A stretch of 64,000 bases of DNA from Octopus vulgaris (Eukaryota), in contig OX597817.1 in the NCBI GenBank assembly GCA_951406725.2, positions 91,946,001-92,010,000 on the forward strand, in the 5' to 3' direction. Within the stretch, counting starts at the first letter, position 1, and each line of letters begins with the position of its first letter. The notes under the pieces were generated by a model that ran no database searches, had not been told where the DNA came from, and was given only the letters and a program-made list of their open reading frames with translations. Position numbers and translations under genes: made by a program. This document shows, one piece after another, positions 545 through 51,354 of this stretch.

Positions 545-968
545 ATATATACATACACACGTCCAGACCTCTCATACGTACTAATACTCTCTCATACACA
601 CACACACACTCTTCTCATACACACACACACACTCTTATGTTGGAGCAAGGTCATTTAACCCTATTATCTCCCCTAATTTCGCTCTTGCGTCTCACGTTTG
701 ATCTTTGACTTCTGGCCGAAATCAGATCGCCATGTTGATTCATTAGCCTCTGCACGCATATTTTTTCTCTCCTTCTTTCTGTGTTTTTTCTCTGTGTATC
801 TTTCTGTTGAAGAGCGTAGGCTCGAAACGTTAAAGACTTGTTTTATTTATATTTCCTGAGTGCCATACTAATACAATTGTTTGTTTGTATTCCACCTGCC
901 TTCATCTTTTGTTTATTTCCGTAAACCTGCCTTCGTCTTTTGTCTATTTTCATAAAGCTTCCCGTTAT
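545..968 (+). mobile_element. Penelope-like pseudo-LTR / non-autonomous element, family P1 (carries hammerhead motif)
   Basis: Close second copy at about 11850-12300. Both end in CTTCCCGTT followed by (TA)n and both contain the same hammerhead-like motif. This copy has an extra 31-nt tandem duplication near 895-957. Confidence 0.65.
799..836 (+). ncRNA. Minimal type I hammerhead ribozyme motif, A6U core variant
   Basis: TCTTT-CTGTTGAA-GAGC(GTAG)GCTC-GAAAC-GTT-AAAGA: stem I TCTTT/AAAGA, 4-bp stem II, palindromic AACGTT stem III, GUU triplet. Confidence 0.6.
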
Positions 969-1082
969 ATATATATATATATATTAATAATAATAAAATG
1001 ACAACAAAAGAATGAGACCTCGATATTAGGTAAATAGAGGAATTTATATATGTATAGTATAGGACAATCAATAAGTTGTCAT

Positions 1083-1143
1083 AATAGGACTCAGAGTTTC
1101 AAATGCCAGAGCTAAGAGCTATGATGCATTTTCATCAGCTATT
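1083..1143 (-). ncRNA. Type I hammerhead ribozyme with canonical core
   Basis: Minus strand reads AATAG-CTGATGA-AAATGC...GCATTT-GAAAC-TCTGA-GTC-CTATT. All core nucleotides are present, the cleavage triplet is GUC, and stem III (ACTCTGAGT) is near-palindromic. Confidence 0.8.
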
Positions 1144-1320
1144 TTAACAATAGACGCTATGAAAAAAAAAACCGTTGAATAAAAGGGAAGTTATTCTAAT
1201 AGACAGGAAAAATTATAAAACATGTAAAATAAAAAATAAAAATTATAAAAAATACATGTAACCATATTCTCACAATACATATAAAACCTGCATTCGTAAA
1301 ATCTACATACATGCATATGA

Positions 1321-1520
1321 TTCTTGAAAGAACAAGGTATCAGCTATAATATTTACTGGGAGATCTTGGCCAAGTGTAAACCTTAAACCAATGGCAGTGG
1401 TAAGTGTGGTCTTTGTGATATGGAAAGATGGTTCATCTGGAAAAATTCCTTAGACCTCGCTACATGTCTAAATTCCAGAACTGAACTTTTTGGATCATGT
1501 CCATATATGAAAAAAATACT
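1321..1520 (+). pseudogene. C-terminal GIY-YIG endonuclease region of a Penelope-like ORF
   Basis: Reads FLKEQGISYNIYWEILAKCKP*TNGSGKCGLCDMERWFIWKNSLDLATCLNSRTELFGSCPY, fitting the W.IL...CxLC..E...LN.R.EL...C pattern of PLE C-termini. One in-frame stop. Confidence 0.75.
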
Positions 1521-2419
1521 TATTATGGTTTTGGGCCCCCCAAGGTCACGCATAGAACCTGCTTTTTTATTATGTTCTCGTACAAGCCTTCCATATGTCT
1601 TAACATTTTTTATTGCTTTATATATATATATATATATATATATATATATATATATTTTTGTATTTTTTATTTTTTTCCTTTTTTAATTGTGTGATTGTAT
1701 ATGTATATGTATGCATATACTAAATGTGTATGTGTGTGCATGTGTATATATGTCTTCATGTGTATGTAAGTATATCTATTTCTTTATTGCCCACAAAGGG
1801 CTACACATAGAGAAGACAAACAAGGACACACTAAGGGATTAAGTCGATTACATCAACCCCAGTGCATAACTGGTACTTATTTAATCAACCCCGAAAGGAT
1901 GTGTTGATAGGAGGGTGTATATGTATGTAAGTGTATATCTGTATACATATGTACATATATGTATACTTATATATGAAGTGAGTGTGAATACATGCCTGTA
2001 CAAGTATGTATATATGTATGTGCTTGTGTATATGTGTGAGTATATTTTATATGGATAAATGTCTAATATATTTGTAAGCATATATCTATGTGTATATGAT
2101 GGAGTTGTGTACATATATATGTATGTATGTGTGTATATTTATACATATATGTGTATGTATATGTATATGTGCATGTGTGTGTGCATGTAGAGATGTGTAT
2201 ATGAGCACGTAAATGCATGTATATGTTTTGTGTGTGTATGGGCATATATATATACATGCTTGTGTGAGTGTGTACATATGTAGACTTTACAAACACAGAA
2301 GGTCTTATATGTATGATGAGAATATGGTTGCATGTATTTTTCGTAATTTTTTAAATTTAAAATTTTTTACCTTTTATAATTTTTCCTGTCTATTAGAGTA
2401 ACTTCCCTTTTATTCAACT

Positions 2420-47825: not shown

Positions 47826-49382
47826 TTATTATTATCATTATTAACTCTCTCTGAGTGAAGACATCATTTTTGGTATGATTTATTTGTGCATGCCAAATGA
47901 ATTTTTCCAAAGGTTTTTTGGTATGATTATAAAGTGAACTATAATTGCCTAAGGACGGGCATAATTATATGTGGCTATCATACTGATAATTATGCTACAA
48001 GATTAAACACTAGAATGACAAAAATAATTTTTTAAAAGAGAGAGTAAACATAAAATCATAACGCACAACTAAATGTACAAGGAAAAGATGATAGGACATA
48101 CCTAGGTAGAAGTTGTTGATGTAATTGGATTCTGATATAATTACTAAACTGACACAATCAATATTTAATCAGTAGATTAAATACTTTATAGTATTAAAGA
48201 TATTCTTCTGCATTCTGTGTTCAAATAGTACTGAGTTTAAAATAACATTATAATTCCCCAGAGTTAATAAAATAAGCAGCAGTCATGTCATTGGATTCAA
48301 CATGAGGGACTTATGTGTTTGTCTGTATGCTTGCATTTATTTTAATGTGTGTGTGTGTACATGTGTGCTTTTGCTTAACTATGTGTGTGTTAATGTGAAC
48401 ATTCATGTAATGTTCCGCAAGATTTTGAACATTTCTATATTGTCTGATAATCTGAATATCTTTCTTGTTTGTCATGTCAATGGTAAACCTGTTTGACTGC
48501 TAGGTGTGCTAAGGTAAGTATTGTATTGTACCTTGCCTGAAGTACAGTAGTAGTGCTAAGATTTGAACTTATGACCAGGTTACTTGTAAGGCAATACATT
48601 ATTTACTTTACAAATCATGAAATTATTAAATCATAATGATAATATGGAATCAGATTTAGAAGGCCAAATATTTCAGTGCTCCTTTTAATGAGACCTGTAT
48701 AATTGTTTGGATAAGTATCAATATATGACTCTTTGAATGGATCAAACCAATGAGGGAGTCCATATGTGGACATTTAGCTAGTCAGATATAGTAGTCAAAT
48801 CTCTCTTAAATTATACTCAAAAAATCCAAAAGAGGAAATTTACACAAGATTATAGAGTTGTAGATATGTCTTGCATGAAAAAATGGTGGCGTGGTCATGC
48901 TTAGAATGCCTTTAGTTTGCTCAATAAGGACCAAAAAACTACAAAAAACAACAGCCCTGAATGGATGGGATGTCAAATTTACTCTGGGGAAACGAAAACT
49001 TAGAATATAGAAGAAGGAATACTGTGAGGTATTTCATGACATTTAACTTTCATTTTTAAAATTTTAATTCTTTTATTTTTGTAATATGTTTTGATATGAC
49101 ACATCTACATTTTGTAGAGGAAATCGTTATAATTAATCGAAACAATTAATTTATGTAACTAAATAACAAGTTAATACTAACATGTTTAACATATGGTGCA
49201 TTAAAAAACTAACTAGAAATAAATTTTCAATAAGACAGATTGATAAACAGGTTAGTTTTAACATATTTAGTGCAGGTAGATTTGATTGCTATTTGAGCGA
49301 CCACGTGAAAATGTCACAATAACATTATCCGGAATAAAATTTAAGCAGATAACACATCGCGTGACACCGTTTAAGAAACAGC

Positions 49383-49508
49383 ATGGTGGATGTCATTACG
49401 AAATATATCAGTGCTGGTTGTAATAGCACACCTCATGTGGCAGACTGGGGCAAGAATGGCTGTATTTGCTTTGGTTCTTGCAATTCTGTAGCTGTTTACC
49501 AACCCCAG
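49383..49508 (+). CDS. ELP2: Elongator complex protein 2, exon 1
   Basis: MVDVITKYISAGCNSTPHVADWGKNGCICFGSCNSVAVYQPQ matches the ELP2 N-terminus pattern. GT donor at 49509, phase 0. Confidence 0.88.
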
Positions 49509-50807
49509 GTTAGTGTATCTCTGTTTATATCGTTAATGTATTTTATATTTATCGATAACGGTTACTTCGGTATGACTATCACGTTTGGCTTTGATATTTT
49601 GTGTTTGCGTAATGCATGTACAGGAGTGAATGACTGAATCGAGAGTAGTTTTGGTTTCGAGCTTTTAACTTCTGAGTTCAAATCTCTCTATTCTTTTCAT
49701 CTTGCTGAGACTGATATGACAGTAATACAGGTGATTGGATATAATCGTCTTCACTATTGAATGCCGTGCCCCATGTATAGCCACCGTTCAATGAATTAAA
49801 CCATTAAAAGAATAATGTGTATGTGTACACACACACACAGGAAACCGAGTCTTTTAATACTTTCGGTTAGTGTTACTATTTATTCACAAAATGTAATATA
49901 ATAGAATAGATAGATATTTAACACTTAATAAAAACATAGATGATGTAATCATCACACCGATTAATGTTCATACGTTTGAAACATATTCTAATTTCTTGTA
50001 ACTAAGATTTGTTAAAAGCCCATCTGGAACCCAGCCATAATAAAGACTACATCTGTATCCTCCACTCACATACAGACTATTGGGCCGGACAACCTACTGA
50101 ATTGAAGGGTTCCAACCTAAACTATAACAACTTATATAAAGTCTAGATCTGCATTGTCGATTGTAAACTTTCTTTCCTTAAGAAACTAGTATAGTTGATC
50201 TTTTTGCTATCGACCCTGGAAAGAGGATTGGTACAATCAACCTGGACAGGTTTTGAACTCAGATCGAGATTAAATTACTGTAAAGGATTTAATCTGATGC
50301 TCTGTTGTCTCAGCTACTATCACGGTTTTGCAGTCAGCGGGACCCAATCAACAAACTGTCCTTAAATGTACGCAAATGATATTTCTTTCGGTTGGGCCCT
50401 ACTGTATTACAACCCACATAGACCATCAGAGATGAATCACCTAATGATGAACTGGTGCTAGATAATTGTCTGCAAGATGAGCATCTAACAGTGAATAAGT
50501 ACTGGAATGATTCTATGAAGGTAATTACCAAACAAAAACTCTTAGTCTTTACAAATTGCTACACACACACACGTTTCTGATATATTTACAGGCACCTCAA
50601 TCCCTTAGATAGGCGCAGGCATAGTTGTGTGGTTAAGAAGCTTGCTTCCCAACCTTGTCTCAGGTTCAGTCCCACTGTGCAGCACCCTGGGCAAGTGTCT
50701 TTTATTATAGCCTAGCTTTTAGCCTTGTGTGTGGATTTGGTAGACGGAAACTGAAAGAAGCCATCGTGTGTGTGTATATATATATATAACATATATAAAA
50801 ATATATA

Positions 50808-51037
50808 TTTCTTTACTACCCACAAGGGGCTAAACGCAGGGGGGACAAACAAGGACAGACAAACGGATTAAGTCGATTATATCGACCCCAGTGCGTAACT
50901 GGTACTTATTTAATCGACCCCGAAAGGATGAAAGGCAAAGTCGACCTCGGCGGAATTTGAACTCAGAACGTAGCGGCAGACGAAATACGGCTACGCATTT
51001 CGCCTGGCGTGCTAACGTTTCTGCCAGCTCGCCGCCT
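50808..51037 (-). mobile_element. SINE family S2, young copy in ELP2 intron 1
   Basis: CpG-rich GGCGGCGAGCTGGCAGAAACGTTAGC...GAGTTCAAATTCC...GCCTTTCATCCTTTCGGGGTCGATTAAATAAGTACCAG. Confidence 0.8.
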
Positions 51038-51096
51038 CTATAAAAATATAGGAGAGTATTGTAGTTTGCTTGAAGCATTGTGTATTGTTTGTAAAG

Positions 51097-51354
51097 AATA
51101 AAAAGTTTTGGGTGGTACAACAATGCACTATAATACAGACAATGGGCTATATACCTGTTGTAATCTAGTCATCCATAGTCTGATATGAAAAGCCGTTAGA
51201 AAACCGATTATAGCAGCGACTCCATCTAAGAATCTCTGAAGAAGGAATTTTATTCCAAAATATCATATCAGACTATGGATGACTAGATTACAACAGGTAT
51301 ATAGCCCATTGTCTGTATTATAGTGCATTGTTGTACCACCCAAAACTTTTTATT
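51097..51354 (+). mobile_element. Penelope-like inverted pseudo-LTR insertion, family P5 (perfect 92-bp inverted repeat with hammerhead remnant)
   Basis: 51097-51188 is the exact reverse complement of 51263-51354. CTGAAGAA-GGAAT(TTT)ATTCC-AAAATATC at 51236-51264. Ends at (TA)n. Confidence 0.65.

Follow-up and report, generated by a model that had tools for sequence, protein, structure and literature searches.

Hammerhead ribozymes are found in the pseudo-LTRs (pLTRs) of metazoan Penelope-like elements (PLEs). The motifs described in PMC4209133 are type I, with a helix I of 4-5 bp, an extra base after A9, a palindromic minimal helix III and, in some cases, a U3-A8 variant core. They form many families per genome, mostly as single truncated copies, and opposite-strand pairs lie 100-700 bp apart. 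The EN+ PLEs of the Neptune/Nematis and Hydra clades carry a GIY-YIG endonuclease at the C-terminus and are characterized by partial tandems, an optional tail, an inverted 5'-truncated arm and (TA)n targets; the role of the hammerhead in PLEs was described as unclear (PMC8557442). In the anole Poseidon element PAc, the tail is set by two internal sites at which RT starts, insertion draws mainly on uncut RNA as template, and the hammerhead is dispensable for insertion in vitro, where its mutants leave insertion unaffected (Frangieh et al. 2024, PMC11167929). Metazoan non-LTR retrozymes, by comparison, are short units without an ORF, of 330-390 nt in mussel and axolotl (PMC7229834; Li, Clavereau and Pollet 2026 preprint). 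Earlier publications have covered hammerheads in PLEs, how abundant they are, and U3-A8 and U4C cores, and have also shown that a single animal genome can hold many PLE families with hammerheads. Supplement file 2 of PMC4209133, as available to us, has no octopus entry.

We analyzed a stretch of 64,000 nucleotides of Octopus vulgaris DNA (contig OX597817.1, positions 91,946,001 to 92,010,000), referred to as the window. A first-pass annotation had placed ten type I hammerhead motifs of five families here, and all of them were confirmed at the stated places (families A-E, Table 1). The window families share with the published PLE hammerheads all the features listed above from PMC4209133. Very probably, they are minimal type I hammerheads residing in the pLTRs of four unrelated coding PLEs (A, B, C and E) and in one non-coding repeat (D), whose cleavage is predicted to be slow, or to depend on dimers or on the aid of protein, with most insertions likely made from uncut RNA.

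Table 1. Hammerhead-bearing features of the window (positions from its first letter; C3, core position C3 of the motif)
Feature	Position	Strand	C3	Remarks
A copy 1	548..984	+		5'-truncated 3'UTR and pLTR of Neptune-type PLE; ends at (TA)n; initiator-like start 724
A hammerhead (copy 1)	799..836	+	804	core CUGUUGA (A6U); 4-bp stem II; ACGU as stem III; cut predicted after 831
B inverted arm	1000..1309	-		
B hammerhead	1083..1143	-	1138	canonical CUGAUGA; predicted cut after 1088, minus strand
B GIY-YIG endonuclease, broken C-terminal piece	1303..1551	+		upstream of the 2870 hammerhead
B main arm, pLTR	2839..2969	+	2873	decayed hammerhead
C copy, putative start site to tail	8119..8324	-	8299	hammerhead 8256-8306; core GUGAAUA
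C inverted arm	8375..8480	+	8399	core GUGAACA; stem II broken; 3' side deleted
A copy 2	11853..12317	+	12168	young subfamily, 98% identical to other copies; hammerhead 12163-12200; initiator-like start 12092
A copy 3	12321..12510	+	12386	older subfamily; core CUGUAGA; G12A; begins near putative start site
D arm	37900..38416	-	38110	1.5 units of 350-nt ORF-less head-to-tail repeat; hammerhead 38072-38116
D arm	38404..38852	+	38599	1.3 units; hammerhead 38593-38637; family core CCGAUGA
E inverted arm with tail	51040..51187	-		5' end at predicted cut site within 1 nt
E pLTR	51188..51345	+	51236	hammerhead 51232-51268; canonical CUGAAGA

The type I layout and the microsatellite targets hold across the families, and the inverted arms proposed for four of them were found for B, C, D and E. 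Stem III is palindromic in general, but the AACGTT given for A was not upheld: stem III of A is the 4-nt ACGU, and a longer AACGUU forms only where a copy has U17. The masters of all five families follow the CUGANGA/GAAA/UH order of a three-helix type I hammerhead, with A, C and D each deviating in the core. Individual copies are more worn. Of the ten window copies, only three (799, 12163 and 1083) agree with their family in core and stems; the others include G12A at 12382 (A), several damaging changes at 2870 (B), C8U at 8254 (C), G5A in both D arms, and G12A with a stem I mismatch at 51236 (E).

Chance matches in AT-rich repeats can hardly account for these motifs. Relaxed patterns do yield many low-scoring matches, and no hammerhead model is among the 150 of 163 Rfam matches listed for the window. 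In 800 kb of the genome, however, a relaxed descriptor gave at least 19 matches, whereas five shuffles gave 0-5 and the reversed sequence 1. Within the window, likewise, it gave 2 matches against a total of 5 over 30 window shuffles. The motif also has a fixed position in the pLTR, its variation obeys hammerhead rules, and family A closely resembles the Acropora digitifera Neptune motif (PMC4209133). The loci fetched include tens of genomic copies of each family.

The high abundance first proposed for these motifs is genome-wide. The 800 kb sample, which consists of evenly spaced genome stretches, holds ~40 motifs, an abundance typical of that published for animal genomes (PMC4209133). Family A is estimated at roughly 60,000-90,000 related copies and family C at roughly 25,000 (a rough figure, from 7 per 800 kb). 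The window is only ~2-3x denser than average: it holds 7 insertion events where 3.0 would be expected in 64 kb (P=0.036 by Poisson, for families themselves defined in the window). Diversification is likewise borne out; ~25 motif types differ in their stem sequences, and seven further types in the random sample have no copy within the window. Within families, the covariation signal is small. Stem II of A is 98% paired, and pair 1.4-2.4 is C-G in 23 of 52 copies and G-C in 17 of 52, which amounts to about a single change from one subfamily to another; no more than 9 of 52 copies keep the fifth pair of stem I.

A Penelope-like or retrozyme origin had been suggested for all five families, and the two terms divide them. 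Families A, B, C and E are the pLTR ends of PLEs, and D is retrozyme-like. In thirty A loci, chosen by the DNA that precedes the hammerhead, the element continues into RT and GIY-YIG frames. One A locus (L289) is a partial tandem in which two hammerheads 4.35 kb apart flank a 773-aa frame with matches to RVT_1 (E=9e-8) and GIY-YIG (E=0.018). The A protein has a DKG-type RT, a CX4CxxC linker and two cysteines between GIY and YIG, as in Neptune. Both domains, RT followed by a C-terminal GIY-YIG, were also found in E, and at 12 of 12 loci (chosen by protein and including the query's own locus) the GIY-YIG frame is followed, in the same orientation, by the E hammerhead. For B and C the endonuclease was found, and no RT was detected in the DNA fetched around the loci. 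The B hammerhead follows the GIY-YIG in the same orientation at 9 of 12 loci (chosen by endonuclease DNA, again including the query's own locus), and the piece at 1303..1551 is 65% identical over 83 aa to the frame of one B locus (L223). The B protein lacks the internal cysteines and has a C-terminal CxxC. A LINE with a restriction-like endonuclease that lies beside B at five loci (L009, L015, L018, L020 and L022) was considered as the ORF of B and rejected as a segmental duplication. In C, a GIY-YIG match (22.7 bits, cut-off 22.6) lies 1.0-1.5 kb upstream of the hammerhead in the same orientation at four loci (L128, L272, L285 and L286); at three others (L255, L271 and L361) it lies in the opposite arm. 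The C and E proteins have a CX3-4CxxC linker. The four PLE proteins are only ~23-33% alike, and among the loci examined none of the families yielded an ORF confirmed as fully intact. By motifs alone, A is Neptune-like and B is as described for Hydra. The 5' truncation, inverted arm, optional tail and microsatellite target of the EN+ PLEs are all present; the tails here differ in length, at ~40-60 nt, as do the 3'UTRs of B and C, which are long and microsatellite-rich (compared with PMC8557442, as far as its available text goes).

Since the hammerheads of A, B, C and E lie downstream of endonuclease frames (and of RT in A and E), they are not non-autonomous elements as first annotated. They evidently lie in truncated or promoter-to-tail copies of coding PLEs. 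The label is apt for the ORF-less D, in which no RT and no GIY-YIG were found. Judged by its structure, D is the sole retrozyme-like family of the five. Like metazoan retrozymes (PMC7229834; Li, Clavereau and Pollet 2026), it has a 350-nt unit without an ORF and an extended helix I with a bulge, and the mismatch at the base of helix II is as in axolotl HHR_Amex2; the unit falls within the 150-450 nt that define such head-to-tail repeats. The hammerhead at 38593-38637 has a 6-bp helix I, a bulge and a closing stem, with loop 2 AAAUAA and an A-A at the base of stem II. Unlike those retrozymes, D occurs as dispersed copies of 0.3-1.7 units with a PLE-type tail, inverted arms and a C4 core. D was likely copied by the same enzymes as the A, B, C and E elements.

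The view that all five are self-cleaving, non-autonomous retrozyme families replicating through circular RNA is, in our judgment, quite unlikely. Most copies in all families are short and non-coding, and D fits this view, with helix I and loop 2 of canonical type and 30 of 103 aligned segments that exceed one unit and run around its junction. Against it, only 1 of the 103 (L349) carries two whole hammerheads in tandem, and no long tandem array was seen in 80 D loci. The other four families run upstream into their coding frames, and no short head-to-tail unit was found in the loci examined.

Five differing cores had been listed for the five families. The A6U and G3-C8 variants stand, and one of the five cores is decay. 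CUGAAGAA is a canonical core with the free N7 and the usual extra base. CCAAUGAA was rejected as the core of D, for which CCGAUGA is commonest with a CpG-decay pattern; CCGAUGA as the family core means that the CCAAUGA first recorded is its CpG decay, to which the G5A of 38072-38116 is also attributed. Among 30 D copies, from a set enriched by a CCAA query, 9 have CCGAUGA, 7 CCAAUGA and 6 CUGAUGA. The invariant core nucleotides are kept in E (canonical in 32 of 41 copies) and in part of the mostly canonical B, and are broken in A (U6), C (core GUGAACA; G3-C8, a swapped pair, in 71 of 97 copies) and D (C4). C4 (U4C) recurs in subfamily A2, part of B, and D. It was rightly proposed that canonical patterns would miss such cores, which comprise A6U, G3-C8, U4C and U3-A8; the two families with the most copies here would escape a search for CUGANGA. 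Family-wide U6 and G3-C8 and recurrent C4 were not found in the available text of PMC4209133. A literature search, with the variants of Lunse, Weinberg and Breaker (2017) outside its scope, returned only engineered mutants and unrelated ribozymes for natural G3-C8 or A6U cores.

The variant cores A6U and G3-C8 may be catalytically dead, the motif being kept as a structural or protein-binding element of the pLTR; we regard this as rather improbable. It would accord with the drop in Mg2+-dependent cleavage by orders of magnitude in A6C (PMC7151607, PMC3088659), with the in vitro insertion of the anole element by hammerhead mutants, and with the history of A, whose amplification is evidently recent although all 30 of 30 young copies carry U6. 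G3-C8, on the other hand, requires two coordinated changes, and the pair partly rescues cleavage in engineered mutants (PMC8495972), among them the laboratory C3G/G8C mutant of the anole PAc hammerhead (PMC11167929), of which family C is the natural counterpart. Across the A subfamilies N7 and N17 are free to vary and the remaining core positions are constant, with GAAA, G5 and A9 fixed and N17 avoiding G (1 of 37). Core and stems had been expected to be conserved relative to flanks, and with CpG excluded they diverge less in E (core 3.6%, stems 2.6%, flanks 6.6%; n=39) and in C (4.5%, 3.9% and 7.0%; n=30), although truncated ends and subfamily differences inflate the flank figures. In minimum-energy folds of A and E, the core pairs with downstream sequence and the hammerhead is not formed.

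The insertion ends point to largely uncleaved templates. Copies appear to start mostly at a promoter upstream of the hammerhead and to run across the cut site in C and E, as would also be seen with dead cores. In an end survey covering 70 of 165 exact matches to E, 57 of 70 copies cross the predicted cut site, 38 of 52 5' ends lie 31-90 nt upstream of it, and 4 of 60 lie within 9 nt. There is no pile-up of 5' ends at the predicted cut site in this survey, nor at the first site in D. In C, the starts of 26 of 30 copies cluster at a single site to within ~8 nt, and 7 of 11 have an extra G there (P=0.001). A 3' splice site, though possible, was set aside as the cause of this sharp edge because the extra G can be accounted for by transcription start and copying of the cap G, with no need for an exon of 1-3 nt. 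In run X13, one contig joins what we take to be a template-switch adapter to the predicted +1 A of family A; this start-site evidence is one contig from one sample, and assembled contigs cannot show cut ends. In D, six of the seven longest copies have their ends between -7 and +18 nt relative to the upstream cut site. These stops, with the window E inverted arm that starts at the cut site, hint that some templates were cut.

A route consistent with this anatomy would begin with transcription from an initiator-like site 25-90 nt upstream of the core, suggested by the one cDNA 5' end in A and by copy ends in C and E. Reverse transcription would then prime internally at two sites 100-230 nt downstream, at (TA)n-rich nicks, leaving the optional tail; the two 3' ends are observed, and the mechanism is taken from the anole element (PMC11167929). 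Synthesis would halt prematurely or on reaching the RNA 5' end, and frequently a second arm is added in inverted orientation as seen in the copies, yielding tens of thousands of short hammerhead-bearing stubs. Selection may keep the fold in master copies, with the slow cores A6U, G3-C8 and U4C tolerated because, as we propose, cleavage is not rate-limiting for insertion. Genomic copies decay afterwards, chiefly at CpG. A bolder reading, possible though on balance doubtful, is that the cores form a natural allelic series (A6U, G3-C8, U4C three times against CpG pressure, and U3-A8) fixed in retrotransposon lineages that have been successful, since PLE hammerheads are selected as slow switches gated by protein or dimer formation, with insertion ends that record capped uncut RNA and D bounded by the cut site.

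Because the young, transcribed, A6U-fixed family has canonical sister subfamilies that share its stems, it offers a ready way to test the need for cleavage, and the G3-C8 family places a laboratory rescue pair in nature. As a separate observation, assembled RNA carries a 2753-3651 joint without splice ends.

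Ten hammerhead motifs were found in the window, as reported in the first-pass annotation, and that observation is sound. They fall into five families (A to E), which had been read from sequence alone as non-autonomous Penelope-like/retrozyme retroelements. The family guess was right, but four of the five (A, B, C and E) are the pseudo-LTR (pLTR) ends of coding Penelope-like elements (PLEs), and D alone is retrozyme-like. In family E, a GIY-YIG frame that includes a CX4CxxC linker ends ~300 nt upstream of the core. Its hammerhead lies downstream in 12/12 loci picked by the E GIY-YIG protein, with the reverse transcriptase (RT) visible in several. 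The B hammerhead is downstream in 9/12 loci picked by the B endonuclease piece, whose motifs agree with the description of the Hydra clade in PMC8557442. Family A appears to be a young Neptune-like element; its copies are mostly 92-99% alike, and at L289, one of the genomic loci retrieved, a complete tandem unit spans 4.35 kb. In four C loci, one of them drawn from the random sample, an endonuclease lies 1.0-1.5 kb upstream. The four PLE proteins are mutually only ~23-33% alike, and the families are therefore independent. Family D is a 350-nt unit without an ORF; 30/103 aligned segments are longer than one unit and run across the junction, and the 3' end falls at one of two sites ~55 nt apart in 78/103. 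In all families the 3' ends are sharp and lie at microsatellites, a tail is optional, and both 5' truncation and inverted arms occur. The same layout has been described for PLEs (PMC8557442), and two internal RT starts explain it (PMC11167929).

L287:9050-10000 (-) and L304:352-1272 (-) hold another PLE family, with RT thumb, CX4CxxC linker and GIY-YIG; one of these copies lies 5-6 kb upstream of the window, adjoining an E copy. Two unlinked C copies (L100:1500 and L112:1500) are joined to the same unrelated repeat at an identical point, either as a chimera or at a preferred target.

The core of family A is CUGUNGA. U6 is present in 30/30 young copies, picked by the DNA upstream of the motif (whole CUGUUGA in 28/30), and in 36/37 incidental copies having the GUAG loop. 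Sister subfamilies with identical stems carry CCGACGA (9/12 in one) or canonical CUGAYGA (3/3 in another). Across the A superfamily (n=37), N7 (U 11, C 11, G 8, remainder A) and N17 (A 24, U 11, C 1) vary while the remaining core positions are held. Cores of families B to E were counted with consensus-based fuzzy patterns, so the most decayed copies are left out: C has GUGAACA, a swapped C3-G8 pair, in 71/97; E has CUGAAGA in 32/41; and B is canonical or C4 (CUGAUGA 13, CCGAUGA 9, CUGAAGA 6, CCGACGA 6; n=45). The D core is CCGAUGA with CpG decay both ways, and one of the five distinct cores first proposed is such decay. Only three window copies agree with the core and stems of their family, those at 799, 12163 and 1083.

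The stems of A were analyzed in 52/55 incidental copies, after removal of one copy out of register and two that are segmental duplicates; pairing in stem II reaches 98%. Pair 1.4-2.4 is C-G in 23 and G-C in 17, which amounts to a single change between subfamilies, and only 9/52 keep the fifth pair of stem I. Within E and C, core and stems diverge less than the flanks, whose divergence is inflated by truncated ends and subfamily differences. The D hammerhead resembles canonical retrozyme hammerheads in its extended helix I, bulge and AAAUAA loop, and the base of its stem II shows an A-A mismatch in 33/35. Upon energy minimisation, helices I and II form in C, the dimer palindrome forms in B and D, and the core takes alternative pairings in A and E.

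Copy ends bear on whether the template is cut. Among 70 E copies picked by a downstream anchor, 57 cross the predicted cut site. Only 4/60 end within 9 nt of it, and 38/52 end 31-90 nt upstream, with few ending beyond. In C, the starts of 26/30 copies cluster within ~8 nt at a TCAG site that precedes the core by 25 nt, and 7/11 exact starts carry a non-genomic G, as expected of a copied cap. Many A copies start near a similar TCAG site ~80 nt upstream. This was predicted as the start site first, and an adapter, which we take to be a template-switch adapter, was afterwards found joined to its A in a single contig from run X13 (presumed RNA; one sample). Two findings count against a fully uncut template: 6 of the 7 longest D copies, a sample both small and post hoc, stop at -7 to +18 nt relative to the upstream cut site, and in the window the E inverted arm begins at the predicted cut site. 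The A element is represented along its ORF in contigs from four RNA-like runs, which indicates presence and says nothing of level or cleavage. The pLTR of Drosophila Penelope likewise has an internal initiator promoter (PMC2377424).

The assembly is 2.8 Gb in 227 contigs, ~30 of them chromosome-sized, and the window is AT-rich and dense in microsatellites and repeats. A relaxed descriptor listed 19 matches in 800 kb of genome sampled at even spacing, versus 0-5 in five shuffles. Family profiles found 25 A, 2 B, 7 C, 0 D and 0 E hammerhead-spanning copies in this sample; with 7 more well-scoring motifs of other types, the total is 41, or 3.3 per 64 kb. The ten window motifs represent 7 insertion events versus 3.0 expected (P=0.036), for families defined in the window itself. 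Rough extrapolation from the sample gives 90,000 genomic copies of the A superfamily and 25,000 of C. All 1.85 Mb fetched, a redundant and enriched set, hold ~25 motif types, and several of these have the U3-A8 core already published. In the random sample, several additional hammerhead families carry U3-A8 cores (L130:8152, L150:5987, L158:6377 and others), one with a canonical-type loop 2. A published O. vulgaris repeat annotation, possibly of another assembly, records 31 Penelope-like families as recently active; the available sections do not mention ribozymes (PMC13282606).

The system itself is already known. PLE hammerheads have been described as numbering thousands per genome, spread over several families, dependent on dimers and weakly active, with U3-A8 among their cores (PMC4209133). 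Natural U4C, A6C and U3-A8 variants (PMC3088659), the Mn2+ preference of A6C (PMC7151607), engineered partial rescue by C3G/G8C (PMC8495972, PMC11167929 and PMC3884650) and retrozymes with their PLE origin (PMC7229834 and a 2026 preprint) are also described. No natural G3-C8 or A6U hammerhead appeared in the literature searched; Lunse 2017 and PMC4209133 supplement file 1 lie outside it and may bear on this. What is new is the evidence on start sites and the occurrence of A6U and G3-C8 as fixed cores.

Features of the window (hammerheads by core position C3)
Feature	Position	Strand	Detail
Hammerhead, A	804, 12168, 12386	+
Hammerhead, B	1138; 2873	-; +
Broken endonuclease end, B	1303-1551
Broken LINE reverse transcriptase	4025-5617	-	Not Penelope-type; RVT_1 E=2e-21
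Hammerhead, C	8299; 8399	-; +
Spacer between C arms	8325-8376		50 nt; 90% identical to 10366-10417
Decayed DDE_1 and mariner-type transposase remnants	10207-11265, 18702-19938, 36622-37095
~1-kb element, two copies	12872-13887, 40599-42348	opposite	90-96% identity
5S rRNA-derived sequence	24698-24809		65.2 bits, over Rfam gathering score
Hammerhead, D	38110; 38599	-; +
Hammerhead, E	51236	+
Short WD40-like exons	52230-60428		Pfam WD40 E=6e-5 at 60006-60425

The second copy of the C spacer, 2 kb away, adjoins a DDE_1 transposase remnant; the match suggests that the spacer may have been filled in from a nearby chromosomal template at insertion. The two copies of the ~1-kb element are 27 kb apart. 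The 5S rRNA-derived sequence is probably a pseudogene or SINE head, and the WD40-like exons may resemble the Elongator subunit ELP2.
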